DNA of 64,000 bases from Candidatus Omnitrophota bacterium (GTDB lineage: Bacteria > Omnitrophota > Gorgyraeia > JAHIPI01). The position numbers and the translations under genes were made by a program. The stretch spans positions 3,397-67,396 of the forward strand of contig JADHVZ010000006.1 of assembly GCA_016783745.1 (NCBI GenBank). The letters run 5' to 3'. Of this stretch, positions 9,885-56,125 are shown piece after piece (position 1 is the first letter of the stretch; each line of letters starts with the position of its first letter). A model generated the notes under the pieces. The model saw only the letters and a program-made list of their open reading frames with translations, was not told the DNA's origin and searched no databases.

Positions 9885-10142
9885 TTAGCGCTTCATCATC
9901 GCGCAGCTACTCTTCGAGCCCCACCCCTTATACATCTTCCCGTGGCCCTGATAAGCCGAACATACGCTAAAGACCAGAGTAAATGCCGCGGCTACCCAGA
10001 GAGACATGGCGATCACATTTCCGAAGGATCTAAGCAGGCCCTTCTTTAATTTATCCGCTATTACCAGTACAAAGAAACTGAGCATCACTAGAAGCAGCGC
10101 GCTGGTGATCCCGCATAACCCGAAACTCCTCATAGCGATCAT
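9885..10142 (-). CDS. Small hypothetical membrane protein (~85 aa, two predicted TM helices)
   Basis: ORF preceded by AAGGAGG-5nt-ATG; hydrophobic segments ALLLVMLSFFVLVIA and IAMSLWVAAAFTLVFSV; no recognisable family. Confidence 0.5.
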   Translation of the reverse strand: MIAMRSFGLCGITSALLLVMLSFFVLVIADKLKKGLLRSFGNVIAMSLWVAAAFTLVFSVCSAYQGHGKMYKGWGSKSSCAMMKR

Positions 10143-10152
10143 GTGCACCTCC

Positions 10153-11733
10153 TTATTTTTTCGCGTCCTTCATTAGTTTATATTCTATGCCGTCTACAAG
10201 CGCGAGCCAGCTGGCTTCGATGATATTCACCGATACCCCTACCGTCCACCATGAATCTTGCTCATCCTGTGACTGGATGAGCACCCGCACCTTAGCGGCA
10301 GTTCCCGCTTTCTCGTCCAATACCCTGACCTTAAAATCGGCCAGGTGCATCTTGTCTAGAGATGGATAAAATTCCACAAGCGCCTTTCGAAGCGCGTTAT
10401 CAAGGGCGTTCACAGGCCCGTCTCCGAGCGCGGCCGTATGTTCTTTTTTACCGCCCACCTTGACTTTGATCGTGGCCTCGGAGACCAGATTACCGTCTTC
10501 ATCGTCTTCCACGATCACCCTGAAGCCTTCCAGGCGGAAGAATGATTTAAAATGCTTCATGGATCTTCTCATGAGGATCTCGAAAGACGCCTCGGCTGAT
10601 TCAAATTGATAGCCCTTATGCTCAAGCTCCTGCACAAGCTTAAGTATCTTTTTAGCCTTGGGGCTGTCTTTCTGTAATTGCAGATTGAACTCCTCTGCCT
10701 TTCTCAGGATGGTGGATTTTCCGGAAAGCTCCGAGATGAGAAGCCTGCGCCTGTTGCCAGTAGCGGCCGGATCCATATGCTCGTAACTTTTCGGATTCTT
10801 TAATATCGCGTTGACATGCACCCCCGCCTTATGGGCAAACGCGCTCGCTCCCACAAAAGGCTGATTGCCCATCTGCCTCATGTTGCTGATCTCTGAAATA
10901 AACCTTGAGGCCTCAGTCAGCTCCTTAAGCTGCGTATTCGATACGCAATTGATACCCAGCTTCAGTTTAAGGATAGAGATGATAGAGACCAGATTAGCGT
11001 TACCGCATCTTTCGCCGAAACCGTTTATGGTCCCCTGCACATGTTCGCATCCGGCCTGTACGGCGGAGATGGAATTGGCAACCGCAAGTTCTGAATCATT
11101 ATGCGCATGGATGCCGAGGCGTTTTTTTACGATTCTTTTCACCTCGGCGGTTATCCTATAGATATCCGATGCAAGTGTTCCGCCGTTAGTATCACAGAGG
11201 ACCAGGCAGTCCGATCCTCCGTTATCCGCCGCTTCCAGAGTCGCGATGGCGTAATCAGGGTTGGATTTAAATCCGTCAAAAAAATGTTCCGCGTCATAGA
11301 TGACCTCTTTATTTTTTGACTTAAGATAGGCTACACTTTCTGTGATCATGTTAAGGTTTTCTTCCAGGCTTGTGCGCAAAATATCTTTAACATGCAGGTC
11401 CCAGCTTTTTCCGAATATAGTGATGGCCTTTGTTTCCGCCTTGATCAGGGATCTCAGGTTTACATCGTCTTTGGCCTTGATCTTAGGCCTTTTGGTCGAA
11501 CCGAAAGCCGTGATCTTTGAGTTTTTGAGCCGTAATTTTTTGAGTTTTTTGAACACCTCGATATCCTTGGGGTTTGCCCCGGGCCAGCCCGCTTCGATGT
11601 AATGGACACCCAGTTCATCCAGCTTCTGCGCTATCCTCACTTTATCCGTGACGCTGAATGAGATTCCCTCTGTCTGCGCGCCGTCGCGCAGCGTCGTATC
11701 GTATAACTTTACATTGTCAGCCAATGTACTCAC
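10153..11733 (-). CDS. (R)-citramalate synthase / 2-isopropylmalate synthase family protein (CimA-like, with C-terminal LeuA-dimerisation/regulatory domain)
   Basis: 526 aa; N-terminal DTTLRDGAQ...IEAGWPGANPKD HMGL-like TIM barrel typical of the CimA subgroup; start overlaps lysC. Confidence 0.8.
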   Translation of the reverse strand: MSTLADNVKLYDTTLRDGAQTEGISFSVTDKVRIAQKLDELGVHYIEAGWPGANPKDIEVFKKLKKLRLKNSKITAFGSTKRPKIKAKDDVNLRSLIKAETKAITIFGKSWDLHVKDILRTSLEENLNMITESVAYLKSKNKEVIYDAEHFFDGFKSNPDYAIATLEAADNGGSDCLVLCDTNGGTLASDIYRITAEVKRIVKKRLGIHAHNDSELAVANSISAVQAGCEHVQGTINGFGERCGNANLVSIISILKLKLGINCVSNTQLKELTEASRFISEISNMRQMGNQPFVGASAFAHKAGVHVNAILKNPKSYEHMDPAATGNRRRLLISELSGKSTILRKAEEFNLQLQKDSPKAKKILKLVQELEHKGYQFESAEASFEILMRRSMKHFKSFFRLEGFRVIVEDDEDGNLVSEATIKVKVGGKKEHTAALGDGPVNALDNALRKALVEFYPSLDKMHLADFKVRVLDEKAGTAAKVRVLIQSQDEQDSWWTVGVSVNIIEASWLALVDGIEYKLMKDAKK

Positions 11734-12968
11734 CTCTCTTTTACAATTGCCTTCTTGCTCAGATTAAATGCCTTATGAAGCGCCTTTACGGCATCTTGGG
11801 CCTTCTTCCTGCTTATCACGCAGGATATCTTGATCTCGCTTGTGGATATCATCCCTATATTTATTTTTTTGCCCGCGAGCGCGGTAAACATCTTCGCGGC
11901 AACGCCGGCATGCGTCTTCATGCCTATGCCGACGACGGAGACCTTGGCGATATCATCATCGGAGGTCACGCCCTCGGCCCCTATCTTATCGGATATTTCC
12001 TTCGCGGTCCTTATGGTCTTGAGAAGATCATCCCTGTTTACGGTGAATGACACGTCGGTGGCGCCCGTTCGCGAAATATTCTGTATGATCATGTCTATGT
12101 TGATGTTCTTATCCGCCAGGACCTTGAATATATGAGCGGCCGCGCCCGGCTTATCGGGAACATCGCAAATGGTGATCTTGGCCTCATTCTTGTTCACGGT
12201 AACCCCGCTCACTACCACTTTCTCCATCATCTTGACCTCCTCCGAAATCACAGTCCCTTTTTTATCGTTAAAGCTTGATCTGACATGAAGCGGTATCTTG
12301 AATCTGCCCGCTATCTCGATGCTTCTTGGCTGCATGACCTGAGCGCCGAGTGATGCCAGCTCCAGCATCTCCTCATAGCTGATCTTGTCAAGTTTCCTGG
12401 CGTTTTTCACGATGCGCGGGTCAGCCGTATAAATACCGTCGACATCCGTATATATCTCACACACACTCGCGTTAAGTGATTTCGCCAGCGCTACCGCGGT
12501 CACGTCGGACCCTCCGCGGCCCAGAGTCGTTATTTCCTGCTTAAGCGAGACACCCTGAAACCCGGCCACTATCACTATCCTATTCTTCTCAAGCTCCTTC
12601 AGTATTTTCGTCGCGTTAACATCTATTATGCGTGCCTTTGTATGCGAGCTGTCGGTCCTTATCCCTACCTGTGACCCTGTGAATGAGATAGCCTCTTCAC
12701 CCAGCTTATGTATGGCCATAGCTAAAAGCGAGACGGATATCTGTTCCCCCGTCGATACAAGCATATCCATTTCCCGTTCGGAAGGATATTTTGTTATCTG
12801 CCGGGATAGTTCTATAAGCTTGTCGGTGGTACCGCCCAGCGCGCTTACCACGACTACCATCTTATACCCCAGGCGCTTAAACTTCACTATGCGCCTGGCA
12901 ACATCCTGTATCCGGCCTGTATTGGCGACGCTTGATCCGCCGTATTTTTGCACGACGATGTTACGCAT
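11730..12968 (-). CDS. lysC: Aspartate kinase (monofunctional, C-terminal ACT domains)
   Basis: 412 aa; VVQKYGGSSV...KMVVVVSALGGTTDKL amino-acid kinase signature; two ACT repeats. Confidence 0.9.
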   Translation of the reverse strand: MRNIVVQKYGGSSVANTGRIQDVARRIVKFKRLGYKMVVVVSALGGTTDKLIELSRQITKYPSEREMDMLVSTGEQISVSLLAMAIHKLGEEAISFTGSQVGIRTDSSHTKARIIDVNATKILKELEKNRIVIVAGFQGVSLKQEITTLGRGGSDVTAVALAKSLNASVCEIYTDVDGIYTADPRIVKNARKLDKISYEEMLELASLGAQVMQPRSIEIAGRFKIPLHVRSSFNDKKGTVISEEVKMMEKVVVSGVTVNKNEAKITICDVPDKPGAAAHIFKVLADKNINIDMIIQNISRTGATDVSFTVNRDDLLKTIRTAKEISDKIGAEGVTSDDDIAKVSVVGIGMKTHAGVAAKMFTALAGKKINIGMISTSEIKISCVISRKKAQDAVKALHKAFNLSKKAIVKER

Positions 12969-14571
12969 GTTTATACCTCTTCTTCTTTTTCAGATATACG
13001 TATACCTCAAACAACATGTACACTGTTATTATCAAAAGCGCGCATGATATGATCCCTAAAAGAACATCCCCGTTCTTTAGATATTTAGGTATGTTATATA
13101 ACAACGCTCCGAACGTGGTCAATAGCATAAATATACAGGGAAGAATCGTATATATTATTCTTGCGTTTCTGCTTAAAAGCCATACGGTGATCACCAGTAA
13201 AGCAAGTGCCGCTACAAGCTGGTTAGCGGCGCCGAATACCGGCCATATCTTCGTCCAGTTTCCGCTAAGGCCAAGCCAGCCGCTTAAAGCTACTACTATA
13301 AAAGTAGCCAGATACCTGTTCTTTATGCCAAAAAGTTCGTGCGTAAGATAACGGCCTATCCTTGTGGCGGTATCAAGTGTCGTCAAAATAAAAGCATTCA
13401 AGATCACTATAGCCAAAAACCCGCCCATACCCGCCAGCATCGATCCTGTAAGCGCGCCGTAACCGTGCCCGAAAGCTCCTACCGGCCCTGAACCGCCCTT
13501 ACCCAAAAAAGCGGTGAGCGCCGCCTGGTTTTTTAGCCCGGCCGCGACTACCAGGACCGCCATGACCGCGACAGCGGCCTCGACGATCATTCCGCCGTAG
13601 CTTATCCCTCTGGCGTGCGTCTCACTTGACAGCTGTTTCGAAGTAGTCCCGCTCGCCACAAATGAATGAAACCCTGATATCGCCCCGCAGGCAACAGTTA
13701 CAAAAAGCATCGGCCAAAGTGAATTATCAACTAAATGAAAACCGTTGAAAAACGGAAGCGCTATATTGGGACGGGAAACTATAATGCCCAGATAGCCGAA
13801 AATCACGCCAAATATCAGAAGAAACGCCGAAAGATAATCGCGAGGCTGAAGAAGTATCTGTACAGGCGTTATCGAAGCGATAAAAGAATATATAAGCAGC
13901 AAGCAACCCCAGAAAACTTGAGGGTTTTCAGCTTCGATCCTGACCGGGAACTTATTACCGATGATGATCAATAAGGCCATAACCCCCACCCCAAGCAATG
14001 TGACCGCCGCGTGATTCGCCTTCACGTTATAAAGCAAATACCCCACGAGTATCGCGACAGCTATCAGGCCTATTGAGGGAATCACTATCTTCGGTTCATA
14101 GGCGAGGGTCTTCGCGCATAGATAGACAAACACCGCTATCACCAGTATAAGCGTCAGCCATACAAATGAAGCGAAAAAGAGTTTTGCCCTGCGCGAGACC
14201 ACATTCTCAGCTATATCCGAGATCGAGCGTCCGCTGTTTTTTATAGACAATACCAAAGAGCCGAAATCGTGAACACCGCCGATAAAAATAGACCCTATTA
14301 TGATCCAGATGATAGTGGGCCCCCACCCCCAAATGGATAAAGCAAGTATGGGCCCTATAATGGGAGCGGCGCCTGAAATACTCGAAAAATGATGCCCGAA
14401 AAGCACCAGCGGGTTCTTTGCCGGCACATAATCAACGCCGTCATAGTTTTTATGCGCCGGCGTCACCGCTTTTGCGGATATACCGAATAGCTTGACGAAT
14501 TTCTTACTGTAAAAAATGTAACCCAGGGTCAAAAAGACTATCGCTATGGCAGCAACCAAAAGCGAATTCAT
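12961..14571 (-). CDS. cstA: Carbon starvation protein A family transporter
   Basis: 536 aa polytopic membrane protein with CstA motifs (LFGHHFSSISGAAPIIGP, VTVACGAISGFHSFVASGTTSKQL). Confidence 0.85.
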   Translation of the reverse strand: MNSLLVAAIAIVFLTLGYIFYSKKFVKLFGISAKAVTPAHKNYDGVDYVPAKNPLVLFGHHFSSISGAAPIIGPILALSIWGWGPTIIWIIIGSIFIGGVHDFGSLVLSIKNSGRSISDIAENVVSRRAKLFFASFVWLTLILVIAVFVYLCAKTLAYEPKIVIPSIGLIAVAILVGYLLYNVKANHAAVTLLGVGVMALLIIIGNKFPVRIEAENPQVFWGCLLLIYSFIASITPVQILLQPRDYLSAFLLIFGVIFGYLGIIVSRPNIALPFFNGFHLVDNSLWPMLFVTVACGAISGFHSFVASGTTSKQLSSETHARGISYGGMIVEAAVAVMAVLVVAAGLKNQAALTAFLGKGGSGPVGAFGHGYGALTGSMLAGMGGFLAIVILNAFILTTLDTATRIGRYLTHELFGIKNRYLATFIVVALSGWLGLSGNWTKIWPVFGAANQLVAALALLVITVWLLSRNARIIYTILPCIFMLLTTFGALLYNIPKYLKNGDVLLGIISCALLIITVYMLFEVYVYLKKKKRYKHA

Positions 14572-14578: not shown

Positions 14579-15799
14579 TTACGCGCCTTTCATAAAGCTA
14601 TCCATGAGCTGCCAGCCGCTCGGAAACGTCAGCCGGGAAGCCTTTCCGGATTTCTCACTGAAGACCATGGTATTGTCAGCTTCGACGCCGGCACCGCATA
14701 TGACAAAAGGAATCGGGTCAGAGGTATGGGTACCTATCGATATCGGAGTCGAGTGGTCAGGAAGGAGCATCATTTTGACATCGTCCCTGCCTTTAAAGTA
14801 CTTCAATGCGGTCCCTACTATGTGTTTATCAAAGTTTTCGATTGCCGTTATCTTGGCGCGTATATCCTTGTTGTGGCCGGCCTCATCCGTTGCTTCCACG
14901 TGTACGAATACAAAATCATTATTATCGAGCGCCGCCATGGCGTAGTCAGCCTTTCCCTGATAATTCGTATCGTAGTATCCTGTCGCGCCCGGCACATCTA
15001 TGACCTCAAGCCCTATAAGCTTGCCTATGCCGTTTACGAGGTTGACTGCTGAGACTATAGCCCCCTTCACACCGTATTTTTCCTCAAACATGGGAAGCCT
15101 CGGCTTTGTACCCTGGCCCCAGAGCCATACCATGCTGGCGGGGTTTTCCTTAAGATCCAGCCTGACCCTATTGATGTCCTGCTTCTCCAGAACAGCCTTT
15201 GAATCATTCATCAGTTTTATGAGGAAATCAGCTCCCTTACCCTTAGGAAGATTCTTGTCTACCCTCTGGCCTACTATATCGTGCGGCGGCATGTAAGATA
15301 TCTTGCTAAGATCCGCATCCTTGCCTGAAGATTTAAAATGCCTGCCGTTTTTTATCACCATAAGATGCCGGTAACTTATTCCCGGATAAAATTTCACATC
15401 ACCCTTGCCCAGCTTCTTATCGATGGCCCTTATAAGTATGTCAGCTTCCTTGGTGGTTATGTGTCCCGAGCTGTAATCGGTCAGGATACCTTTATCCTCA
15501 GTTATAAGATTGCACCTGAAGGCCACATCGTCATCACCAAGACCTATATCCATATTTGCCGCTTCAAGCGGGCCCCTGCCCGAATAATACTTTAGAGGGT
15601 CATAACCGATGATGGAAAGGTTGGCAACATCGCTTGCCGGGGTCATGCCTTTCGGGATCACGGAAACCATGCCCACTTTACCGTTCTTGGCCATATAAGT
15701 CATGTTCGGTACTTTGGAGCATTCAAGCGGTGTCCTCCCGTCTAGCTCTTCTAAAGGATAATCCCCCATTCCGTCAGGAACCATAACTATGTATTTCAT
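14579..15799 (-). CDS. Cofactor-independent phosphoglycerate mutase (archaeal ApgM/COG3635) family protein; from operon context likely the non-orthologous homoserine kinase
   Basis: 406 aa, MKYIVMVPDGMGDYP... metalloenzyme superfamily N-terminus; sits between thrC and lysC in a hom-thrC-X-...-lysC array lacking a GHMP-type thrB. Confidence 0.75.
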   Translation of the reverse strand: MKYIVMVPDGMGDYPLEELDGRTPLECSKVPNMTYMAKNGKVGMVSVIPKGMTPASDVANLSIIGYDPLKYYSGRGPLEAANMDIGLGDDDVAFRCNLITEDKGILTDYSSGHITTKEADILIRAIDKKLGKGDVKFYPGISYRHLMVIKNGRHFKSSGKDADLSKISYMPPHDIVGQRVDKNLPKGKGADFLIKLMNDSKAVLEKQDINRVRLDLKENPASMVWLWGQGTKPRLPMFEEKYGVKGAIVSAVNLVNGIGKLIGLEVIDVPGATGYYDTNYQGKADYAMAALDNNDFVFVHVEATDEAGHNKDIRAKITAIENFDKHIVGTALKYFKGRDDVKMMLLPDHSTPISIGTHTSDPIPFVICGAGVEADNTMVFSEKSGKASRLTFPSGWQLMDSFMKGA

Positions 15800-15811
15800 T
15801 TTTTCTCCTCG

Positions 15812-16870
15812 TTAATAACCTATTTCTTTCAAGACAGCGCTCATATCGTTCTCGAGAACTATTGGCTTATCTACGCTGGCAATAGCCCTATCAGGGTCTT
15901 TTAAGCCGTGCCCCGTTACAATACAGACTATCTTTGACTTCTTCTTAAAATAGCCTTTTTTCGAATATTTAAGCAGTCCCGCGACTGAAGCTGCCGAAGC
16001 GGGCTCCACAAACACGCCTTCTTTTTGAGCCAGGATCTTATACGCGTTAAGGATCTCGTCATCGGAAACCATATCTATGGCCCCTCCCGATTCATCCCTC
16101 GCGGCTACAGCCTGTTCCCAGCTGGCGGGGTTGCCTATCTTTATGGCGGTCGCTATTGTCTGGGGCTTTTTTACAATATGCCCCTTCACGATGGGAGCCG
16201 CGCCTTCCGCCTGAAACCCTACCATTTTCGGGAGACTTTTTATGATGCCTTTTTCTTTATATTCTTTATAACCTTTCCAGTACGCCGTGATATTACCCGC
16301 GTTTCCTACAGGAATAACATGATAATCCGGAGCTTTGCCGCCAAAGGCATCGCATATCTCAAAGGCCCCTGTCTTTTGGCCCTCGATCCTGAAAGGATTG
16401 AGCGAATTGACAAGTGTTATAGGATATTTATCCGTGATCTCACGCACAAGCATCAGGGCATCGTCAAAGTTGCCCTTAATAGCAATGACTTGAGCTCCGT
16501 GAATAAGCGCCTGAGCCAATTTGCCCAGAGCTATAGAGCCTTCCGGTATTAAAACCACACATTTCATTCCGGCGCGCGCTGCGTACGCGGAGGCAGAAGC
16601 GGAGGTATTGCCGGTAGAGGCGCACATAACCGCCTTTGAGCCTTCCTCCAGGGCCTTGCTGACAGCCATGGTCATACCCCTGTCCTTGAATGAACCTGTC
16701 GGATTCAGCCCCTCATATTTTACGTAAAGCTCAACATCGCCGCCGGCCAGCTCATCCAGATATGGTGTTCTGATAAGCGGCGTATCGCCCTCATTAAGAG
16801 TTATTACGGGCGTATCTTTGCCTACCGGTAAATATTTCTTATATCTTTCTATGACCCCCTTATACATCAT
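15812..16870 (-). CDS. thrC: Threonine synthase (short form)
   Basis: 352 aa; PLP-lysine motif TGSFKDRGM. Confidence 0.9.
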
Positions 16871-16873
16871 ACA

Positions 16874-18169
16874 TCACCTCATCTCCATTCTGATGGCTAC
16901 GGGTTTTCCGCTGATCGAGTTAAGCTTGTTTATCTGACCGAGCGCCTTTCTTAGATCCATCTCTATTGCCTCATGGGTCAGCATGACTATAGGAACCGCG
17001 TGCTCTTTATTTCTCTCTTTCTGCGAAACGCTGGAAATGCTTATTTTATATTTAGCGAGAATGCCTGATATGCCGGCCAGGACGCCGGGTTTATCCATCG
17101 CCATGAACCTTATGTAGTAACGGCTTTTTACTCTTCCGATACCCTTTATTCCGCTTACACCCGAATCAAAATTCATCTCGGGCATTATCATCTTCTTTCC
17201 GGCCGCGACAGCTTCCGCGATATCTGTTACATCCGATATGATCGCGCTTGAAGTCGCCTTCTCGCCGGCGCCTTCACCGTAAAGAAGGCTCTCCCCTATC
17301 ATGTCCCCTTTTATATAGATGGCATTTTGCGCGCCTCTGACTCCGGCTAAAAGATGTTTTGTGGTAAGCAAAGTGGGGTGCACTCTTACGTCAAGTTTGC
17401 CCTCATCCTTTTTCGCGATAGCCAGAAGTTTAATGGAATATCCGAGCTCCTTGGCGTATTGTATGTCCTGTAATTCCACGCTCTGAATGCCTTCTGTAAA
17501 AATATCTCCGACATCTACATACCTTCCGAATCCTAATAACGATAAAATGGCGAGCTTATGCGCCGAATCCATACCGTTTATATCCAGAGTCGGGTTACTT
17601 TCAGCTATTCCCAGCCCTTTGGCTTTTTTTAGCGCGCCATTAAATGTCTCGCCTTCTTCCTCCATCTTAGTCAGAATATAATTTGAAGTACCGTTTATGA
17701 TGCCGTATACCGCCTGGATCCTGTTCGCCACAAAATCACCGCTTAACGCCTTTACCACAGGTATGCCGCCGCCTACACTTGCCTCGAACCTTACCGTCAC
17801 ACCGCATTTTTTCGCTACTTTGAATATCTCTTTGCCGCATGCCGCCAGGAGAGCCTTATTGGCTGTGACCACATGTTTCCCGCTTTCCAGCGCCTTTATC
17901 ACAAATTCCTTCGCGGGATGTATGCCCCCGATGAGTTCGATGACAATATCAATATTGGGGTCATTTAAGATATCGCCGGCTTTTTTAGTGAGTTTTTTAC
18001 GGGAGACCTTGACCGGCCTTTTTGTTCTAAGGTCCTTATCGGCTATACGGACGAGCTCAAGCTCAAGACCCCTTTTTTTCTTTATAAATAACCTCTTGCC
18101 GGCCAGCGCCTTGACTACACCTGTTCCGATAGTGCCGAATCCTATAAGGGCGATATTGACTTTCTTCAT
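16874..18169 (-). CDS. hom: Homoserine dehydrogenase (with C-terminal ACT domain)
   Basis: 431 aa; N-terminal Rossmann GFGTIGTGV, catalytic domain and C-terminal ACT. Confidence 0.9.
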   Translation of the reverse strand: MKKVNIALIGFGTIGTGVVKALAGKRLFIKKKRGLELELVRIADKDLRTKRPVKVSRKKLTKKAGDILNDPNIDIVIELIGGIHPAKEFVIKALESGKHVVTANKALLAACGKEIFKVAKKCGVTVRFEASVGGGIPVVKALSGDFVANRIQAVYGIINGTSNYILTKMEEEGETFNGALKKAKGLGIAESNPTLDINGMDSAHKLAILSLLGFGRYVDVGDIFTEGIQSVELQDIQYAKELGYSIKLLAIAKKDEGKLDVRVHPTLLTTKHLLAGVRGAQNAIYIKGDMIGESLLYGEGAGEKATSSAIISDVTDIAEAVAAGKKMIMPEMNFDSGVSGIKGIGRVKSRYYIRFMAMDKPGVLAGISGILAKYKISISSVSQKERNKEHAVPIVMLTHEAIEMDLRKALGQINKLNSISGKPVAIRMEMR

Positions 18170-18208
18170 ATCAAACCTTTCGTATTAGGAAAAATCGTGG
18201 GACACAAC

Positions 18209-18345
18209 GTCACCAGGTCACCCGTCACCAGGTCACCAAAATCCTATGTGAAATATCTTGGGTTTCAAAGTCACCCGTCACCAGGTCACAAGGGGTTTTC
18301 TTATCCTTTTCTCGTGTGACCTTGTGACGTGTGACCTTGTGACCC
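18209..18345. repeat. REP-like dyad element, 'gtcacc' family: tandem gtcacc(a/c)ggtcacc words plus a palindrome gtcacccgtcaccaggtcacaagg-[loop ggttttcttatccttttctc]-gtgtgaccttgtgacgtgtgaccttgtgac
   Basis: Seen directly; related copy with the same loop word (ggggttttcttat) at 28907-28970. Confidence 0.8.
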
Positions 18346-18362
18346 TTGTATTTTCCAAGAAC

Positions 18363-18441
18363 TGGTCGGGGGGACCAGATTCGAACTGGCGACCTCTTGC
18401 ACCCCAAGCAAGCGCGCTAAACCAAACTGCGCCACCCCCCG
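18363..18441 (-). tRNA. tRNA-Pro (anticodon GGG), genomically encoded CCA, C1-G72 pair and A73 discriminator
   Basis: Minus-strand cloverleaf traced by hand: acceptor CGGGGGG/CCCCCCG, D-stem GCGC, anticodon stem CTTGC/GCAAG with loop TTGGGGT, T-arm GCCAG-TTCGAAT-CTGGT, then ACCA. Confidence 0.8.
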
Positions 18442-18445
18442 GTTT

Positions 18446-19444
18446 TTATAAATGTTCGATCTTCGGAGACCTCATCATAAGGTCTTTTACTACGTCCTTT
18501 GGGGATTTATCTTTATATATTACGTTATAGATCTCGCGCGTGATCGGCATATCCACGCCGATTTTCTGCGAGAGCCGGTATGCCGATTCCGTAGTCGTCA
18601 CACCCTCTACTACCATCTCAGTCTCTTCCACTATTGCTTTGGCCCGCTTGCCCCTGCCAAGCATCTCACCAAACCATCTATTCCTGCTGTGCGGGCTTAT
18701 ACATGTTGTTATAAGATCGCCCATACCGCTTAATCCGGCGAATGTCTCCCGCCTTGCTCCCATAGCAACTCCCAGGCGCGTGATCTCCGCAAGGCCTCTG
18801 GTTAAAATAGCGGCTTTTGTGTTCGCGCCGAACCCCAGACTATCTGATATTCCCGCGGCAATGGCAATTATATTCTTTAGAGCGCCCCCTAATTCGACAC
18901 CCGTTAAATCATCGCTGGAATATACCCTCAGCTTATCTCCGGCAAGAACATTCTGCACTTCCCTGGCCAGATTCAAGCTCCTGGAAGATGCCACTATTGT
19001 CGCGGGCATGCCCTTAGCCACCTCGATCGCTATGCTGGGGCCTGATATTGCCGCGATCTTCCTATCTTTGCCAAGGACATCCTCTATCAGCTCTGACATC
19101 CTCATCAATGTCCTACCTTCAATGCCCTTAGCGGCAGAGACCAGAATAGACGCATCTGCCAGAACACCCTTAAGGCGCGGCAGTATGTCACGCAAATATT
19201 TTGACGGGATAGCCAGGATAACTATGCCTGCTCCGCTTAAGGCCGGCTTTAAAGACGGTGTTATATTGACTTCGGCGGGGATAGCAATACCTTTCAGGAA
19301 TTTTGTGTTTTGGCGGGTCTCTGATATGGATCTTATATAATCCTCAAAAACACCCCACAAGGATACATCAACGCCTTTTTCCGATAGACGTATCGCTAGA
19401 GCCGTCCCCCATCCCCCGTCACCTAATATGCATACTTTATTCAT
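18446..19444 (-). CDS. gpsA: NAD(P)H-dependent glycerol-3-phosphate dehydrogenase
   Basis: 332 aa; MNKVCILGDGGWGTALA Rossmann N-terminus. Confidence 0.9.
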   Translation of the reverse strand: MNKVCILGDGGWGTALAIRLSEKGVDVSLWGVFEDYIRSISETRQNTKFLKGIAIPAEVNITPSLKPALSGAGIVILAIPSKYLRDILPRLKGVLADASILVSAAKGIEGRTLMRMSELIEDVLGKDRKIAAISGPSIAIEVAKGMPATIVASSRSLNLAREVQNVLAGDKLRVYSSDDLTGVELGGALKNIIAIAAGISDSLGFGANTKAAILTRGLAEITRLGVAMGARRETFAGLSGMGDLITTCISPHSRNRWFGEMLGRGKRAKAIVEETEMVVEGVTTTESAYRLSQKIGVDMPITREIYNVIYKDKSPKDVVKDLMMRSPKIEHL

Positions 19445-19574: not shown

Positions 19575-20063
19575 TTAAGAGATCTCTTTGGCAACAGCAA
19601 CAACCGCTAAGTCCATTTTAAAGGAATGAACGAATGCTATGCTGTACACATATTGCCCAACTATGGCGTAACATGTGCCTGCGGTCTTACATAGAAGTGT
19701 ATCCTCTCCTGTGAAGGAGCTGTGCCTTCTTAGTATATGAAAGTGCTTCTTTTTCCATGTATTGCTTGCTTCTTTAAGTTCTCTAAGGCTTTGCATGTCC
19801 TTGGGGCTTTTCAATAAGACCTTCTTCCTTACAAAATAAGTACATCTCCTCTCGATACGCGCCAATATGCCGTCTTTAGAGACAAGCTCTTTTATGTACA
19901 AGCGACGCTTCTTATTGCCTTTTTGAGTGAGATTTCTGTACAATATTTCTCTCATTTTAAGTATCCGCCTTCGCGGCCTCCATAAGTACTTAAAACTTTT
20001 TAAAGCTCTTGAATTAATTGGTAAAAAAAAATTCGCACTTTCTGTACCATATAAGTATACCAC
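19575..20063 (-). CDS. Hypothetical highly basic protein (162 aa, K/R-rich) in an AT-rich insert; true start may be internal (MREIL..)
   Basis: Longest ORF in a ~650-bp AT-rich (~38% GC) segment between plsY and gpsA; followed by a clean terminator; no confident family assignment. Confidence 0.35.
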   Translation of the reverse strand: MVYLYGTESANFFLPINSRALKSFKYLWRPRRRILKMREILYRNLTQKGNKKRRLYIKELVSKDGILARIERRCTYFVRKKVLLKSPKDMQSLRELKEASNTWKKKHFHILRRHSSFTGEDTLLCKTAGTCYAIVGQYVYSIAFVHSFKMDLAVVAVAKEIS

Positions 20064-22773: not shown

Positions 22774-23280
22774 CTACGGTTCATCCAGAAGAAGGATGTC
22801 CGCCTTCTGGATCAATGAAGCTGATATCATGATCTTCTGGTGTTCCCCGGAGCTCAGCGTGCCCATATCCCGCTCTTTAAAACGGCTCATATGAACGGCT
22901 TCCAGGGCCTCATCGACTTCGCGCTCATCTTCCGCGGTCACCATGGAAAAAGGATTGAGGTACGGATACTTGCTCAAAAGGATAAATTCATGAACTTTAA
23001 AAGGGTACGCTCTCGCGTCAGGCTGGGGAACATAACTCATCTCTTTGGCGAGGTCTTTCTGCTTAAAATGCCTTACTTCGGTTCCATTGATCTTTATACC
23101 GCCGGTCCCGCCGGTAAGGATCCTTATCATATTCTTTAGAAGCGTGGTCTTTCCCGCCCCGTTAGGGCCGACTATTGTCAGATATTCGCCCTTCTTCACG
23201 GAAAATCCTACGGAGCGCAGGATATCGCCGTTGCCGTAAGAGTATGAGAAATTTTCTACTTCTATAGCGAATTTTTCCAT
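22774..23280 (-). pseudogene. ABC transporter ATP-binding protein (iron-siderophore/cobalamin FepC/BtuD-like), C-terminally truncated: reading frame stops immediately after Walker B (..ILLLDEP*)
   Basis: 168 aa with Walker A GPNGAGKTT, Q-loop, signature LSSGEHQK, Walker B ILLLDEP then TAG; lacks D-loop/H-loop (~60-80 aa); stop lies 7 bp from palindromic element 22656-22767. Confidence 0.55.
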
Positions 23281-28906: not shown

Positions 28907-28970
28907 CAAGGTCACCAGGTCACCAGGGGTTTTCTTATACTGGTGACGTGTGACTTTGTGACCTTGTGAC
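28907..28970. repeat. REP-like dyad element, 'gtcacc' family (aaggtcaccaggtcaccagg-ggttttcttata-ctggtgacgtgtgactttgtgaccttgtgac)
   Basis: Shares arm words and loop word with 18209-18345. Confidence 0.8.
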
Positions 28971-31782: not shown

Positions 31783-32900
31783 AAAAACTTCTTAAGGGCC
31801 TTTTTATTTTTCATCTTCGCCACAAGTTTTCTGATATCTCCCGCCTTCTTTCTGTCGCAGACCAGAACCGCGTCATCAGTACATACTATTATCATATTCC
31901 CTACGCCCACGGTACCCACGATCCGGTCACTATCCGAGAAGATAATGCATTTCCTGGTATCGATACCCGCGTGAGAGCCAAAAACAGCGTTGCCGTTCTT
32001 ATCCTTTTTGGCCAGCAGGGAGATGCTGTCAAAAGAGCCCACATCGTTCCATCCTAAATTTAAGGGTATGACGCGTATATTCCCGCTCTTCTCCAGCACC
32101 GCATAATCCAGTGACGTACCCTTGATCTTACCGTACAATTTCCTTAATTCCTTGTCAAACTTTGTCTTCTTTTTTCTCGCGGGCAGCATTTGAAGACCTT
32201 CGTGTAATACAGGCATATATTTTTTAAAAGCTGTAAGCATTACCGATGCTTTGAATACGAATATACCGCTGTTCCAGAAATATTTTCCGCTCGATATCAG
32301 GCGGGCGGCTTTCGCGGGACCGGGCTTCTCCACAAATCTTACCACCTTGCGTGAAGAACCGAAGGCTTCTCCGAGCCTACGACTCGGAGAGCCGGAAGGA
32401 GTTCCGGAGGCCTTTCCGTCTACCCCTATATACCCATAAGCGCTTTCCGCGGAGCGCGGTTTTATGCCGAGCGTTATGATAGCTTCTGTTTTTACCGCTT
32501 CTCTCACCGCGCGGCTGATCACCTTATAAAACCCTCTGCCATCAACTATAAGATGGTCGCTTGGCATCACGACGAGAACAGCGTTTCTATTCTTTCTATA
32601 TGAAAGCAGGGCAGCAAGTCCCACAGCGGGCGCCGTATTCCTGCCGAAAGGTTCCTTGACAATAACGCTTTTTCCGACTCTTCCGAGCTGCTTTACCATA
32701 TTTCCGGCGCTTTCCTTATTCGCTATTATGAATATATTTCCGCCGGCTATCTTTGCGGCCCGGATAAATGTATTCTGGAAGAGGGTATTCCGGCCTTGAA
32801 GCTTCAGGTTCTGCTTCGGATAAGCCGCCCTGCTCTTTGGCCACAGCCGCTCACCCTTACCGCCGGCTAATATCGCTGCGTAAATATCTTTTTTATTCAT
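31779..32900 (-). CDS. Mannose-1-phosphate guanylyltransferase (nucleotidyltransferase domain only), with a low-complexity Ser/Gly/Pro insertion
   Basis: 373 aa; AAILAGGKGERLWP N-terminus of ManC/CpsB-type sugar nucleotidyltransferases; insertion GTPSGSPSRRLGEAFGSSRK. Confidence 0.75.
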   Translation of the reverse strand: MNKKDIYAAILAGGKGERLWPKSRAAYPKQNLKLQGRNTLFQNTFIRAAKIAGGNIFIIANKESAGNMVKQLGRVGKSVIVKEPFGRNTAPAVGLAALLSYRKNRNAVLVVMPSDHLIVDGRGFYKVISRAVREAVKTEAIITLGIKPRSAESAYGYIGVDGKASGTPSGSPSRRLGEAFGSSRKVVRFVEKPGPAKAARLISSGKYFWNSGIFVFKASVMLTAFKKYMPVLHEGLQMLPARKKKTKFDKELRKLYGKIKGTSLDYAVLEKSGNIRVIPLNLGWNDVGSFDSISLLAKKDKNGNAVFGSHAGIDTRKCIIFSDSDRIVGTVGVGNMIIVCTDDAVLVCDRKKAGDIRKLVAKMKNKKALKKFL

Positions 32901-33693
32901 TATGTACAGCTTTTGCTATGCTTGAAGTAAATTTTCCGACTGCCTTATTAAGCGTACTCTTCCCCTCGTTCTCTCCTATCACTCTTATGAGCGCGCTGCC
33001 TATTATCACTCCATCGGCCACTCTTGAAATATCCCGCGCCTGCTTCTCATTGGAGACGCCAAAACCTACGCACACAGGCTTGTCTGTAAGGCGCTTGATC
33101 CTCTTAATATTCTTTGAGATATGCGATGGGAGCGCTGCCCTGGCGCCGGTAACGCCCGTAAGTGAGACATAGTATATGAAGCCTTTTGAATGCCTCGCTA
33201 TGATCTTCAGGCGGTCGTTCGTGCTTGTGGGTGAGGCAAGAAATATCAAATAAAGATCTTGGGCCCTGGCTGCCCCTTCAAGCTCGGCTGCCTCCTCAGC
33301 GGGAAGATCCGGGAAGATAGCGCCGTCAACGCCGCATTTCACCGCGTCACGGACAAATTTCTCAACGCCATAATGATAGACAGGGTTCAGATAACTCATA
33401 AGAATGATAGGGATCTGACTCTTTCCCCTGATCTTCTTGACACTCTTTAATATTTTATGCAATGTAGTTCCTGATTTAAGTGACCTTTCGGATGATCTCT
33501 GGATGGTAAGCCCGTCAGCCATCGGGTCGGAAAACGGTACTCCCAGCTCGACTATGTCCACTCCGGATCTTTCAAGCTCTAAAACTATTTTTTCGGTCGC
33601 GGCCATGGACGGATATCCCGCGGTTATATAGACGATGAATGCCTTGCGCTTATCCTTGCTCAGCTTATTGAATGTTTTTTTTATTCTATTCAT
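32893..33693 (-). CDS. trpA: Tryptophan synthase alpha chain
   Basis: 266 aa; TIM barrel with YITAGYP and GFGV motifs. Confidence 0.9.
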   Translation of the reverse strand: MNRIKKTFNKLSKDKRKAFIVYITAGYPSMAATEKIVLELERSGVDIVELGVPFSDPMADGLTIQRSSERSLKSGTTLHKILKSVKKIRGKSQIPIILMSYLNPVYHYGVEKFVRDAVKCGVDGAIFPDLPAEEAAELEGAARAQDLYLIFLASPTSTNDRLKIIARHSKGFIYYVSLTGVTGARAALPSHISKNIKRIKRLTDKPVCVGFGVSNEKQARDISRVADGVIIGSALIRVIGENEGKSTLNKAVGKFTSSIAKAVHNE

Positions 33694-33785
33694 TGGTTAC
33701 GGTTCTCGGTTTTCGGTTTTCGGTTCTCGGTTCTCGGTTGCAGGATTCTTCCCCCTACCCCCTACTACCTACCCCCTACTACCTA
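33694..33785. repeat. Composite tandem array filling the whole trpB-trpA spacer: (ggtt[c/t]tc)x5-6 followed by (taccccctactacc)x2
   Basis: Seen directly; the ggttttc/ggttctc heptamer is shared with elements at 53052-53125 and 56047-56124. Confidence 0.85.
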
Positions 33786-34958
33786 TTATAAGTACTCTTT
33801 AACTATATCTATATCCTTATCGCCGCGTCCTGAAAGACAGACGATTATGATATTCTTTTTACTCAGTTTGGGCGCAAGCTTTGAGGCCTGATATATCGCG
33901 TGCGCCGGTTCAAGGGCGGGGATGATACCTTCTATCTCAGAAAGCATCTTAAAACCTGCGAGCGCCTCCTTATCGTTGACCGCCACATACGAGGCTCGGC
34001 CGGATTTTTTATAAAAAGAGTGTTCGGGCCCTACTCCGGGATAATCCAATCCAGCGCTTATCGAATGAGTGAAGTTTATCTGGCCGTCACTATCCTGAAG
34101 AACATAACTTTTGCTGCCGTGAAGTATGCCTATACCCCCCTTGATCAGAGTCGCGGCGTGTTTTGACGATGAGATCCCGGCTCCTCCGGCTTCAACGCCG
34201 ACAAATCTGACCTTGTCCTTAAAGAACGGGTAAAACAGGCCCATGGAATTACTGCCTCCGCCCACGCAGGCGAGGAGATAATCCGGTAACCTTCCTTCCT
34301 CCTTAAGTATCTGCGCGCGCGCCTCTTTACCTATTACGGACTGAAAGTCCCTTACCATCTTGGGATACGGGTGCGGCCCTACCACCGATCCAAGAACATA
34401 GTGAGTTGTCCTTATATTAGTGACCCAGTCACGCAGGGTCTCGTTAATGGCGTCTTTTAAAGTCTTTGAACCGCTTGTCACGGGGATGACCTCCGTGCCC
34501 ATAAGGGCCATCCTGAAGACATTAAGCGCCTGCCGCTTCATATCCTCCTGGCCCATATAAACGTGGCATTCGCATCCGAATAGCGCGGCGGCTGTCGCAG
34601 TGGCCACTCCATGTTGGCCCGCTCCGGTCTCCGCGATAATTCGGTTCTTTTTCATGCGCTTAGCCAGAAGCAACTGGCCTATGGTATTGTTTATCTTATG
34701 CGCTCCTGTATGCAGCAAGTCTTCGCGCTTCAGATATATCCTGGCGCCCTTAAATTTTTTTGTCAGGTTGCGCGCAAAATATAAAGGTGTAGGCCTTCCC
34801 GCGTACTTTTTAAGATAGAAATCAAATTCTTTTTTAAATCCGGGGTTTTTCTTCGCCTTAAGATACTCACGCTCAAGTTCATCCAGAGCGGACATGAGAG
34901 TCTCAGGGACATATTTTCCGCCGAATCTTCCGAAGTATCCTCTTTTACCGGGTAACAT
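33786..34958 (-). CDS. trpB: Tryptophan synthase beta chain
   Basis: 390 aa; PLP site HTGAHKINN. Confidence 0.95.
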
Positions 34959-37457: not shown

Positions 37458-39248
37458 TTATTTACTTCTTACGAGTTCTATTCTGTCCACATAGATCTTT
37501 GATCTCTCTACCGGATATTTCGCGCGTATATCCAATGAGATCTCAATAACGCGGGAGAGCCCGAATATATTGTCTCCGTAAGTCACGCCGTCATACGGAT
37601 CCCTTTTGAAGTCTTTCCATAGATCAAAGGAATATTTGTTCCATCCGCTCTTATTAAGGAAGATAGGGGGTGAATTATAAATTTCCCCTTCCCTGTCTTT
37701 TATATTTAGATGCGCAACATTGCTCGCGTGGCCGCTGGATCCGTTTGAATATACCCATAGGTTAACGGCATCGTAAGTGCTCCAATCCTGAGGATACAAA
37801 AAAGGCCGCCTTATTGTGGCATTGGCTCTTTTTGCTTTTTCGTTCGGTGTAAACTCGATTCGCATAGAATGTGTACCGTCGACCGCCAGTTCATCCGTCC
37901 AGCCCAATGCTACCTCCGCCTTACTTAAATGCATGAGATCCTCCGGATATGCGGTTTTAAATTTTATATCCGTATATTCAAAGTCATCCACTACCGGCAC
38001 AAATTGGTAATCAGGATCATACTCCAGACTTTCGATCATCCTATTGGATTCATCCAGGTCTTTGAACGCCGAAAAAGGATTAAAGCTGCTCTTGGCGAAA
38101 AGATACCACGAAGTGCTGGAGATGCACAAGGGTTTATCCTGCATAAGCCAGCTGTCATATACAGGCGTCCCCTCATTGCTCGCATAAGGTAAACCTTTTG
38201 TGTGAGGAAAAGCCGGACTATCCGTAAGGCACCTGTCCAGTTCGTTTAAAAAATAGAGCCTTTCCTCTTCCCTGCCGGCCACTTCATATGCCAATACCAT
38301 GTGCGCCGTACCCTCAAACCAGACAGCGTCTTTGTCGGGAAAAGGCGAATTCTTATAGGAAGATCCGAAGTCGAATCCTTCAACCTTTACGTCTTTGACT
38401 TTATAGAGCTGTGAGTTAAGCCCCTTATCAATGGCAAAATCCAGACTAACAGCGTAATCCTTTCCCAGGCTTAATACCGCCCATGAGGACAAATCCGTGG
38501 CAAAATTAGGATTGCGCCTGCCAAGGAAAAATCTTTTCGCTTTATCATCCCAGGCATCATCATCCAGCCATTTCTTTACTTCTTTCGCGGCTCTTAAATA
38601 TTTTTCATCGCTTGTCAGGATGCCCAGATCTCTTAAGCCGGCATAACAGTCAAAATTATGCTCCGAAGATATCCAGACCATGGGATTACCGTTGCCGTAA
38701 TAACCTCCTATTATTCCTCCCTCTATAGACTGCAGGGAAATAAGCCAGTCCGCTATATCTTTCGCGAGCGGAAGGAATTCATCATCACCGGTTTCATGAT
38801 AATAATAGTTCGCCGCCATAAGAACCCAGGCACCCGGTCCGGCGGCCCGGGTCTCCGTCTCTTCTCCGTCTCGTTTATATACATCCGTAAAACCCCATAT
38901 ATCACCTTTTTCCTCAATGTGGGCCTTCCTTACATCATCAAAAAACTTGAGCAATAACCTGGCCCTGTCATAATCCCCTCTAAGCGTAAAAGCCATTGCT
39001 GCCAATGCCTCGTCATAAACAAAACAATCTTCTCCCTTTTCCATACTGGGCAGTAATCCGGTGCGGAAGAGGAGCCATTGCCTGTTAGTCCGCTGATTAG
39101 AAACCAGCCATTGATAAGCCTTATCCGCGTCTGACCACTCCTTATGGCCTCTTACAGCCAGGATATCCTGGATAGCGGGGGTCAAGGCTAAAGACCCGGC
39201 AAGGACGCAAATAATAATTAAGGAAATAATTAATATTTTTTTCATCAT
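37458..39248 (-). CDS. Secreted hypothetical protein, probable alpha/alpha-toroid glycosidase-like domain with C-terminal beta-sandwich (CBM-like) domain
   Basis: 596 aa with signal peptide; no confident family match; C-terminal ~150 aa resembles the CBM-like paralogs 41545-43154 in composition. Confidence 0.45.
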   Translation of the reverse strand: MMKKILIISLIIICVLAGSLALTPAIQDILAVRGHKEWSDADKAYQWLVSNQRTNRQWLLFRTGLLPSMEKGEDCFVYDEALAAMAFTLRGDYDRARLLLKFFDDVRKAHIEEKGDIWGFTDVYKRDGEETETRAAGPGAWVLMAANYYYHETGDDEFLPLAKDIADWLISLQSIEGGIIGGYYGNGNPMVWISSEHNFDCYAGLRDLGILTSDEKYLRAAKEVKKWLDDDAWDDKAKRFFLGRRNPNFATDLSSWAVLSLGKDYAVSLDFAIDKGLNSQLYKVKDVKVEGFDFGSSYKNSPFPDKDAVWFEGTAHMVLAYEVAGREEERLYFLNELDRCLTDSPAFPHTKGLPYASNEGTPVYDSWLMQDKPLCISSTSWYLFAKSSFNPFSAFKDLDESNRMIESLEYDPDYQFVPVVDDFEYTDIKFKTAYPEDLMHLSKAEVALGWTDELAVDGTHSMRIEFTPNEKAKRANATIRRPFLYPQDWSTYDAVNLWVYSNGSSGHASNVAHLNIKDREGEIYNSPPIFLNKSGWNKYSFDLWKDFKRDPYDGVTYGDNIFGLSRVIEISLDIRAKYPVERSKIYVDRIELVRSK

Positions 39249-41544: not shown

Positions 41545-42327
41545 CTACTCCGCGTTATTTGTGAAAATGAAATCATCGATGTAGGCGATGTCGCCCTGCA
41601 TATTACCGACATCCTTTCCAAACGCTATGCCTAAATTATCAAGTTGAGACAGATCCACTTTACCGCTGATCTGAGCAAGCGGTATCATTATCCTCTGCCA
41701 CTGGGCAGTCAGGTCAGGGAGCCTATATCTGATCTGAGGGTCATAATCCAAGGCGTGGCCATCCCTGACCAAAAGCTCCATTTTCTCGCCGCCACTTTCG
41801 CCTTTTGCCCAAAATACAATAAATTTATATCCGGAGGCATCCAGCGACTCTACTTTTTTTGGAGTTGTCGTTATATCTATCGTAGAACCCAGATCCATCG
41901 CAAAACTGCCCCAGGCAAGCTCCGGTTTAACGCCAAGTCCGTTTACAAGCCTGAAGGAATTATTGCCGGAACGGACATTCGCCGTATTGTAGCCGAGTGA
42001 AACAGGATCATAGACCCAGGAAACAGGAAACTCGTTTACATTTTCCCAATCAGGTTCCAACGCCCCGTATACACCTATTTCGCCGCCTAGATTATTCGGC
42101 CACCCTTCAAAATCAGCGACGATCAAGGCATCATCCGACACCGCCGCCTTCTCCGATTCCACCATAGGCTTTGAGGGTATTGCGGGCGGGGCTTTCGGTG
42201 TTTCTACTTGACTACTTTGCGCGGTTTCCGGCTCTGAGATAGGCTGTTCCACCTCAGCCTTTTTCCCGCATCCTGAAACCGCGAATAACAGCACAAAAAG
42301 GAGAACACAAAATCTATTCATTATCAT
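41545..42327 (-). CDS. Secreted lipoprotein, CBM-like beta-sandwich domain (paralog of 42435-43154)
   Basis: 260 aa; lipobox AVSGC; shares ADFEGWPNNLGGE(I/V)GVYG...SFRLVNGLG...WGSFAMDLG...F(I/L)VFW with the downstream paralog. Confidence 0.5.
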   Translation of the reverse strand: MIMNRFCVLLFVLLFAVSGCGKKAEVEQPISEPETAQSSQVETPKAPPAIPSKPMVESEKAAVSDDALIVADFEGWPNNLGGEIGVYGALEPDWENVNEFPVSWVYDPVSLGYNTANVRSGNNSFRLVNGLGVKPELAWGSFAMDLGSTIDITTTPKKVESLDASGYKFIVFWAKGESGGEKMELLVRDGHALDYDPQIRYRLPDLTAQWQRIMIPLAQISGKVDLSQLDNLGIAFGKDVGNMQGDIAYIDDFIFTNNAE

Positions 42328-48055: not shown

Positions 48056-48676
48056 TTAGTCAAGAGCCTTAATAATGCTTATTATCCGCTCCATAAGCTT
48101 TTTATCCTTTTTACCCGGGATTAGCTCTATGGAGCTGGATATGTCTACTCCATAAGGCCTTACAGCTTTTATAGCTTCCTCTATATTATATAGAGAGAGG
48201 CCCCCTGAAAGTATCATGGGTATGCCCAGGCTCCTGGCTTTAAGCGCAAGGCCCCAGTCAAAAGTCTTTCCTGTGCCGCCGTAAGCCTCTTTAGAGTAAG
48301 TATCCAAAAGGCAGGCGAAAATATCCTTATAATCAGTTATGGGCTTGAGGCTTTTTTCGTCTTTGATCCTGAACGCCTTTATCACCTTCCACCGCAACAG
48401 CTTAGAACAAAAAAGCGGGTTTTCATCGCCGTGAAGCTGGAGGGCGTCTAAAGAACAATTTCCGGCAATTCTTTCAATATTAGACAGGTCTTCATTCACG
48501 AAAACGCCGACTTTTAGAACGCTTCCCTTGAGCCCCTTTATGATGGATCTGGCTTTTTTCGGATCCACTTTTCTGGGGCTTTCAGCGAATACAAAGCCGA
48601 TCGCGTCAGCGCCTAAGTCCACAGCGCCTTGCGCGTCTTCCTGATTGGTTATACCGCATATCTTGATCTTGGTCAT
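48056..48676 (-). CDS. trpF: N-(5'-phosphoribosyl)anthranilate isomerase
   Basis: 206 aa; MTKIKICGIT...ADAIGFVF. Confidence 0.9.
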   Translation of the reverse strand: MTKIKICGITNQEDAQGAVDLGADAIGFVFAESPRKVDPKKARSIIKGLKGSVLKVGVFVNEDLSNIERIAGNCSLDALQLHGDENPLFCSKLLRWKVIKAFRIKDEKSLKPITDYKDIFACLLDTYSKEAYGGTGKTFDWGLALKARSLGIPMILSGGLSLYNIEEAIKAVRPYGVDISSSIELIPGKKDKKLMERIISIIKALD

Positions 48677-48703
48677 TATTCTATTGGATAGCTGGATACT
48701 GAT

Positions 48704-48734
48704 GTTACGAGACGTTACGAAAGATTACGTAACC
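48704..48734. repeat. 'gttacgag' family element (gttacgagacgttacgaaagattacgtaacc) in trpC-trpF spacer
   Basis: Direct gttacga words followed by inverted cgtaac; related to tandem array 26772-26820. Confidence 0.75.
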
Positions 48735-48743
48735 TCAATATAA

Positions 48744-50533: not shown

Positions 50534-50542
50534 TCTAACTCC

Positions 50543-51109: not shown

Positions 51110-51110
51110 C

Positions 51111-52954: not shown

Positions 52955-53051
52955 GTTTGCTCCTTAGGTAATGATGATATCCGCTCGGTCGCTTAACAAG
53001 GATTCCACACATGTTAAATGTGCTCTCGAATCGTTTGTTATTTCGCAGAGA

Positions 53052-53125
<74 letters not shown>

Positions 53126-53159
53126 AACATGAATTTGCCAAATAAGCTTACTGTTAGTA

Positions 53160-53287: not shown

Positions 53288-53323
53288 TATTTTATGTAAT
53301 TAACACGTATTTCACTTTTTATT

Positions 53324-56014: not shown

Positions 56015-56046
56015 GGATTGACCTTTCTTGACATATTTTTTAGGTT

Positions 56047-56124: not shown

Positions 56125-56125
56125 T

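Follow-up and report, generated by a model that had tools for sequence, protein, structure and literature searches.

The stretch of DNA analyzed here (the window), 64,000 nucleotides of contig JADHVZ010000006.1 from a Candidatus Omnitrophota bacterium (assembly GCA_016783745.1), contains a group of aspartate-family genes that includes a gene encoding a 406-aa protein related to the ApgM-type cofactor-independent phosphoglycerate mutases (iPGMs). This gene, which we assign as homK (thrB2) and whose product is probably the enzyme that forms O-phosphohomoserine in this organism, is the subject of the present work. It lies in the array hom-thrC-homK-cstA-lysC-cimA (Table 1), which continues beyond cimA with an open reading frame (ORF) of 87 aa, valS, a pseudouridine synthase gene, and nadC, and which is preceded by the genes of tRNA-Pro and gpsA. 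The spacing of the genes from hom to cimA is operon-like: hom and thrC are separated by 3 bp, thrC and homK by 12 bp, and homK and cstA by 7 bp, cstA and lysC overlap by 8 bp, and lysC and cimA by 4 bp. The homK gene, which is preceded by a GAGGAG ribosome-binding site of its own within the 12-bp gap, is presumably co-transcribed with hom and thrC. Homoserine is the product of the hom-encoded enzyme and O-phosphohomoserine the substrate of the thrC-encoded one, the lysC product catalyzes the first step of the aspartate pathway, and cimA represents a route to isoleucine that is independent of threonine. A preliminary description of the window had placed hom, thrC, and an iPGM-like gene of this size co-directionally with lysC; the ORF coordinates proved to be exact, and the Pfam and NCBIfam assignments of the products agree.

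Table 1. Positions of the genes and other elements of the window discussed in the text. Scores are given with the cutoffs of the relevant models in brackets.
Feature	Position	Strand	Description
hom	16874-18169	(-)	homoserine dehydrogenase, 431 aa; PF00742 (192 bits), PF03447, C-terminal ACT domain PF01842; NF004976, 499 bits (205)
thrC	15812-16870	(-)	threonine synthase, 352 aa; TIGR00260, 351 bits (167); PF00291
homK/thrB2	14579-15799	(-)	ApgM-like metalloenzyme, 406 aa; PF10143 PhosphMutase, PF01676 Metalloenzyme; TIGR02535, 519 bits
cstA-family transporter gene	12961-14571	(-)	536 aa; PF02554, 436 bits
lysC	11730-12968	(-)	monofunctional aspartate kinase with two ACT domains, 412 aa; NF005155, 601 bits (346)
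cimA	10153-11733	(-)	citramalate synthase; TIGR00977, 793 bits (450)
87-aa ORF	9885-10148	(-)	between cimA and valS; no Pfam match
leader	18170-18362	(-)	between tRNA-Pro and hom; GTGACC-repeat hairpin and weak sigma-70-like site
weak sigma-70-like site	18268-18241		TTGAAA-16-TAGGAT, in the leader
tRNA-Pro	18363-18441		upstream of hom
palindromic element, hom leader	18209-18345		GTGACC(T/A)GGTGAC units
palindromic element, second site	28911-28970		GTGACC(T/A)GGTGAC units; between rpe and an M50 peptidase gene
162-aa ORF	19575-20063	(-)	adjoining gpsA; no Pfam match
ABC-transporter ATPase ORF	22774-23280	(-)	168 aa
trpB-A	32893-34958
ORF	37458-39248	(-)	no Pfam match
ORF	41545-42327	(-)	no Pfam match
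trpE-G-D-C-F	48056-52577
hisD-B-H-A-F-I	52574-57346
ORF	60005-60448	(-)	no Pfam match

Family assignment and active-site residues

The score of the 406-aa protein with the model TIGR02535, named "proposed homoserine kinase", was 519.2 bits and exceeded the trusted cutoff of 446.3. The protein also passed the cutoff of NF003242 (543 vs. 426 bits) and scored 504 bits with TIGR00306, which represents the broad apgM subfamily, but remained below the cutoffs of NF003104, the equivalog model of archaeal iPGMs (329 vs. 489), and of NF038358, the PhpG model, to which it matched only in part (234.5 vs. 545 bits). A search of the protein structural database matched it to the solved archaeal iPGMs 2zkt (E = 2e-69) and 3kd8 (E = 2e-58), and these two proteins served as controls for the scores of the hidden Markov models (HMMs). 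Their behavior was the reverse of that of the window protein, as they failed with TIGR02535 (318.5 and 277.3 bits, respectively) and NF003242 (317 and 282) and passed the cutoff of NF003104 (569 and 539). Hence NF003242 tracks the TIGR02535 clade and not the characterized archaeal iPGMs. As this model is named "cofactor-independent phosphoglycerate mutase", the homologues of the window protein are labelled mutases by their sources, and PGAP-style annotation, in which a model of that name accepts the HomK clade and rejects the solved archaeal iPGMs, systematically names HomK as a mutase. The family and the fold of the protein can be regarded as settled, based on the structure match to 2zkt and the curated HMMs.

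Residues of potential functional significance were compared after the window protein and 80 relatives (81 HomK-like sequences in total) had been aligned with 2zkt and 3kd8. The nucleophile and metal ligands, D9, S56, D305, H309, D348, H349, and H358 in the numbering of the window protein, are common to the HomK-like set and both mutases; six of them are invariant in all HomK-like sequences, and H349 is a His in 80 of the 81, the remaining sequence having an unread residue at this position. Position 302 is occupied by Glu in 81 of the 81 HomK-like sequences, a count that is not fully independent, as the relatives were gathered partly by a pattern containing this Glu, and by Lys in both mutases. 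No other column of the alignment combines an invariant Glu in the former with a Lys in the latter; E218, which corresponds to Lys in one mutase and to Arg in the other, is variable among the relatives. Further differences from the iPGM structures concern the mutase motif DRRAGR, which reads DYSSGH in the window protein (Y109, S110, and H113 in place of three Arg residues), as well as W227 (Arg in the mutases), E306 (Ala or Val), and D277 (Asn or Gly). Thus, the mutase residues K302, R109, R110, R113, and R227 are all replaced. These changes take away positive charge or introduce negative charge, as would be expected if the substrate had changed from the anionic phosphoglycerate to an amino acid, and positions 109-113, 227, 277, and 306 may be additional markers of HomK specificity, beyond the Glu/Lys position.

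In the description of the family in a recent preprint, S56 was assigned as the catalytic serine and E299 as the specificity residue, which is Glu in HomK proteins and Lys in mutases (10.1101/2024.10.14.618325). We infer that Glu302 of the window protein is the counterpart of E299 of the Bacteroides thetaiotaomicron protein BT2402, since the D9/S56 numbering is shared by the two proteins, D348/H349 correspond to D346/H347 of BT2402, and the Glu/Lys column is unique in our alignment.

A search for a canonical homoserine kinase gave no candidates. Neither a GHMP kinase of the PF00288 type nor a second phosphoglycerate mutase was detected by Pfam among all 57 non-overlapping ORFs of at least 70 aa in the window. 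With Escherichia coli ThrB (b0003, taken from NC_000913.3) as a tblastn query, nothing better than E = 0.9 was found in the 64 kb of the window, and no ThrB-like sequence in 1.1 Mb of related loci. The statement of the preliminary description that the window lacks a GHMP kinase is therefore upheld by two kinds of search. Its proposal that a metalloenzyme of the ApgM/COG3635 family stands in for ThrB beside hom and thrC gains support from the TIGR02535 score, from the failure of the archaeal iPGMs with the same model, and from the presence of Glu in place of Lys.

Conservation of the locus in related genomes

The best protein matches of the window protein are metagenomic, and those with names derive from Candidatus Omnitrophota/Omnitrophica. 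The homologue sets, which comprised the top 120 proteins and 80 genome loci, are almost entirely from Omnitrophota. The loci were obtained by a scan of GTDB species representatives and are mostly parts of Omnitrophota metagenome-assembled genomes (MAGs), with a minority from Ratteibacteria, Auribacterota, Elusimicrobia, Nitrospirota, Actinomycetota, and Methanosarcinales. The closest homologue in a GTDB representative is only 61% identical, which indicates that the lineage of the window has no close representative there. A single exact match was obtained, on the 9.6-kb Logan contig L001, which was assembled independently for the same organism; it encodes an identical protein, and its genes are arranged as in the window. 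Mapping of the window proteins onto the 80 loci revealed the order (plsY)-gpsA-hom-thrC-homK-lysC-cimA-valS in nearly all of those that are long enough, and the order is conserved in Omnitrophota and neighboring phyla. As the same order occurs on L001 and in most of the related loci, the arrangement is not a product of chance. The 87-aa ORF is conserved on L001; at E < 1e-10, no other relative gave a match to it.

The preliminary description had treated the cstA gene as inserted between the putative kinase gene and lysC. Its position there is correct, but a one-off insertion specific for the window can be ruled out, because 17 of the 80 related loci also carry cstA between homK and lysC (L008, L009, L012, L014, L017, L023, L029, L031, L032, L034, L038, L042, L048, L052, L053, L054, and L059), and these loci are dispersed over the neighbor-joining tree of HomK. 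Remnants of cstA of about 250 bp are present in two further loci (L045, 6606-6863, and L046, 3872-4105). The dispersed distribution together with the remnants suggests that cstA is an old member of the operon that has been repeatedly lost. The closest named NCBIfam model of its product is that of the pyruvate/proton symporter CstA, the cutoff of which was not passed.

In many relatives, thrC and homK are separated by inserts of 0.6-4.6 kb (e.g., in L006, L010, L012, L015, L020, L024, L028, L034, and L038), which are absent from the window. Reading of the translations by eye allowed us to label the insert ORFs as encoding a CoaB-like protein of about 210 aa (motif ITAGPT..IDxVRxISNxxSG), accompanied in some loci by LemA-like, TPM-domain-like, and nucleotidyltransferase-like proteins. 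From the look of these translations, we judged the insert to be unrelated to threonine synthesis and rejected it as a source of an additional threonine-related gene.

Three loci of the set (L070, L077, and L078) belong to MAGs of ANME-2, Methanolobus, and Methanosarcinaceae, respectively. With 52-54% identity to the window protein, their HomK-like proteins group inside the clade of bacterial HomK and well apart from the ApgM mutases of archaea, and in L077 a divergently oriented lysC-like gene adjoins the homK-like gene. The presence of these genes in Methanosarcinales may reflect inter-domain transfer.

Function of the protein and alternative explanations

The displacement of ThrB by members of the TIGR02535/ThrB2/HomK family has already been published and is embodied in curated HMMs, and the locus described here is one more instance of it, in an uncultured phylum. 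TIGR02535 was put forward as a ThrB replacement by the TIGRFAMs curators, and mutants of BT2402 are threonine auxotrophs (PMC7311316). Ashniev (2022) named the family ThrB2, reported its operon linkage with thrC and hom, and found in 2,856 gut genomes that the occurrence of ThrB2 is complementary to that of ThrB (PMC9026213). The family was renamed HomK in the 2026 GapMind preprint (10.1101/2024.10.14.618325). Complementation of a thrB mutant, which the preliminary description had proposed as a test for the window ORF, is already on record for two members of the family: BT2402 and the divergent DET_RS08350 of Dehalococcoides mccartyi rescue E. coli thrB::kan (bioRxiv 10.1101/2024.10.14.618325). 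We found no literature on homoserine kinase in Omnitrophota.

Gene order, family membership, the residue pattern, and the conservation of synteny were observed directly. The explanation that we favor, and to which we would assign a probability of roughly 0.85, is that ORF 14579-15799 encodes HomK and that this protein fills the ThrB step, the reaction being deduced from the genetics of the two homologues. Hom would supply homoserine, HomK would convert it to O-phosphohomoserine, and ThrC would use the latter to make threonine. HomK would thus be a member of the ApgM branch of the alkaline-phosphatase superfamily re-tooled to phosphorylate L-homoserine. Its predicted two-metal centre (D9/S56/D348/H349 and D305/H309/H358) would activate Ser56, which would become phosphorylated by a donor and hand the phosphoryl group on to the gamma-hydroxyl of homoserine in a ping-pong mechanism. 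Glu302, in place of the mutase Lys, may pair with the amino group of the substrate, and the change of DRRAGR to DYSSGH would eliminate the site at which anionic phosphoglycerate binds. The chemistry of phosphoryl transfer is probably the same as in ApgM mutases. The enzyme is probably a phosphotransferase acting via phospho-Ser with a donor other than ATP, rather than an ATP-dependent kinase.

Several points weigh against this assignment. The best-scoring NCBIfam model, NF003242, bears the name of a mutase. The absence of thrB and the inventory of phosphoglycerate mutases refer to the 64-kb window, and both a thrB gene elsewhere in the genome and the lack of any other phosphoglycerate mutase are possible. 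The first attempt at complementation with BT2402 was unsuccessful (PMC7311316), the rescue of thrB::kan reported later was weak and amounted to an OD600 increase of 0.14-0.25 after 47 h (bioRxiv 10.1101/2024.10.14.618325), and formation of O-phosphohomoserine in vitro is unreported for any member of the family. In addition, the equivalence of E299 and E302 derives from numbering and not from a direct alignment, with the window protein being distant from the tested proteins, and the ligand numbers given in the preprint (D274/H278/H325) are out of register with this mapping.

A comparison with known systems places the window protein closest to the tested HomK/ThrB2 proteins. Like BT2402 and DET_RS08350, it passes the TIGR02535 cutoff, shares the Ser56 and D9 numbering and the Glu at the specificity position, and has its gene next to hom and thrC, in the same orientation and with no ThrB-type gene nearby. 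It differs from them in the host, an uncultured member of another phylum, and in the gene context, which comprises a monofunctional hom and a thrC that precedes homK, followed by cstA, lysC, cimA, and valS. In Bacteroides, in contrast, the operon consists of three genes and its homoserine-forming enzyme is bifunctional and has been described as Asd-Hom (PMC9026213). With the ApgM iPGMs represented by NF003104 (2ZKT of Pyrococcus horikoshii, 3KD8/3IDD of Thermoplasma acidophilum, and SSO0417), the window protein shares full-length homology, the two-metal centre, and the Ser nucleophile, but it fails with NF003104, has Glu302, DYSSGH, and Trp227, and is encoded in a threonine operon and not in a glycolytic context. 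ThrB of the GHMP family, such as that of E. coli, acts at the same step of the pathway and is encoded in the same neighborhood, between or next to hom and thrC, but is not homologous to HomK and depends on ATP, on which HomK probably does not depend.

As to the phosphate donor, ATP is unlikely, and phosphoserine, phosphoenolpyruvate (PEP), and phosphoglycerate have been proposed in the literature. The authors of the preprint argue against ATP as the donor, regard phosphoglycerate as improbable, and put forward phosphoserine as a speculation (10.1101/2024.10.14.618325). A model for the phosphoserine idea is ThrH, the phosphoserine:homoserine phosphotransferase of Pseudomonas aeruginosa, which is a functional analogue in being a ThrB replacement that does not use ATP, but which belongs to the HAD superfamily, with an unrelated fold and no sequence similarity to HomK. 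PEP was the original suggestion of the TIGRFAMs curators. If the linkage of homK to cimA and cstA reflected the use of PEP, with the released pyruvate being fed to the pyruvate-consuming CimA, it would settle the question of the HomK donor. We consider this improbable, as the loci that show the linkage are not phylogenetically independent, homK loci outside Omnitrophota lack it, and Glu302 argues, contrary to it, for an amino-acid-like donor.

Among the explanations that differ from the assignment as HomK, a bifunctional enzyme that combines phosphoglycerate mutase activity with homoserine phosphotransfer from 2-phosphoglycerate or 3-phosphoglycerate would account for the homology to mutases and for the lack of a second phosphoglycerate mutase in the window, although 64 kb say little about other such enzymes in the genome. 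In principle, phosphoglycerate, which the preprint calls the most obvious donor (10.1101/2024.10.14.618325), could supply the phosphoryl group of the phospho-Ser intermediate. However, the Arg and Lys residues of the mutases are lost, and HomK does not preferentially co-occur with glycerate kinase, which was found in 53% of genomes with HomK as compared with 67% of genomes with ThrB (10.1101/2024.10.14.618325). Such a dual function thus appears quite improbable.

Even less credit can be given to a plain glycolytic iPGM that would lie beside thrC by inherited synteny and have no role in threonine synthesis. The domains PF10143 and PF01676, the score with NF003242, the names given to homologues by NCBI and JGI, the identity of the catalytic Ser and metal ligands to those of the solved iPGMs, and again the lack of another phosphoglycerate mutase in the window are all compatible with it. 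Nevertheless, the solved iPGMs and the window protein give opposite results with NF003242 and NF003104, and the replacement of Lys by Glu at position 302 together with the loss of four Arg residues conserved in the mutases removes the positive pocket expected for phosphoglycerate. Moreover, members of the HomK clade rescue a thrB mutant and are required for threonine prototrophy. These data make a purely glycolytic function highly improbable.

Finally, a different substrate, namely L-threonine O-3-phosphate for cobalamin synthesis, as may be envisaged from the cobD-linked clade, or a PhpG-like phosphonoformyl transfer, has a negligible likelihood: the family is diversified, the cobD-linked homologues likewise carry the Glu (10.1101/2024.10.14.618325), and NF038358 gives a partial match, but the score is far below the PhpG cutoff, the window scans revealed no cobD or phosphonate genes nearby, and thrC and lysC flank the gene in most related loci.

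Leader region and other features of the window

The leader between tRNA-Pro and hom is the probable start of the operon. Scans for promoters and terminators gave results no better than those for shuffled sequence, and the boundaries of the operon are therefore drawn from gene spacing alone. At the gathering score, tRNA-Pro (matched at 18366-18441) was the only Rfam match in the whole window, with none in the leader, and at an E-value of 1 over positions 18100-18480, the leader itself matched no more than two microRNA models, both far below threshold. A riboswitch or other known RNA leader upstream of hom is thus unsupported by Rfam at either threshold.

The leader harbors one of the two intergenic palindromic elements of the window that are composed of GTGACC(T/A)GGTGAC units. 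Five units between tRNA-Pro and hom form a long hairpin (a 201-nt fold of -72.3 kcal/mol, z = -4.3), and a hairpin resembling it, also in its AAGAAAACCCC loop, is present at the second site; the motif has 9 matches vs. 0.37 expected. It is probably similar to a repetitive extragenic palindrome (REP) or serves as a terminator. The upstream arm of the hairpin in the hom leader has two alternative pairing partners among the downstream copies, but no evidence of attenuation was found there.

The trp genes of the window are split into two blocks, trpE-G-D-C-F and trpB-A, about 13 kb apart. Between them lie carbohydrate genes, encoding a solute-binding protein, a GH94 phosphorylase, GH2-like and GH35/42 glycosidases, and a CBM30-like protein, as well as two ORFs without a family match. 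The genes hisD-B-H-A-F-I run straight into trpE. Five ORFs, all on the minus strand, had no match in the Pfam scan (Table 1), and the 162-aa ORF that adjoins gpsA had no NCBIfam match either. The ABC-transporter ATPase ORF stops right at the end of its ABC_tran domain match and may be truncated or frameshifted.

Significance of the assignment

The significance of the locus extends little beyond correct annotation, and the question of the phosphate donor is general to the family and not specific to this locus. The combination of K302E, the change of DRRAGR to DYSSGH, and R227W provides a slightly richer signature for distinguishing HomK from true ApgM mutases than the single residue published so far. 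The correct name of the gene product would be homoserine phosphotransferase/kinase (HomK/ThrB2) and not "cofactor-independent phosphoglycerate mutase". Under this name, threonine synthesis in the Omnitrophota genome would not be scored as a gap, and glycolysis would not be falsely scored as complete.

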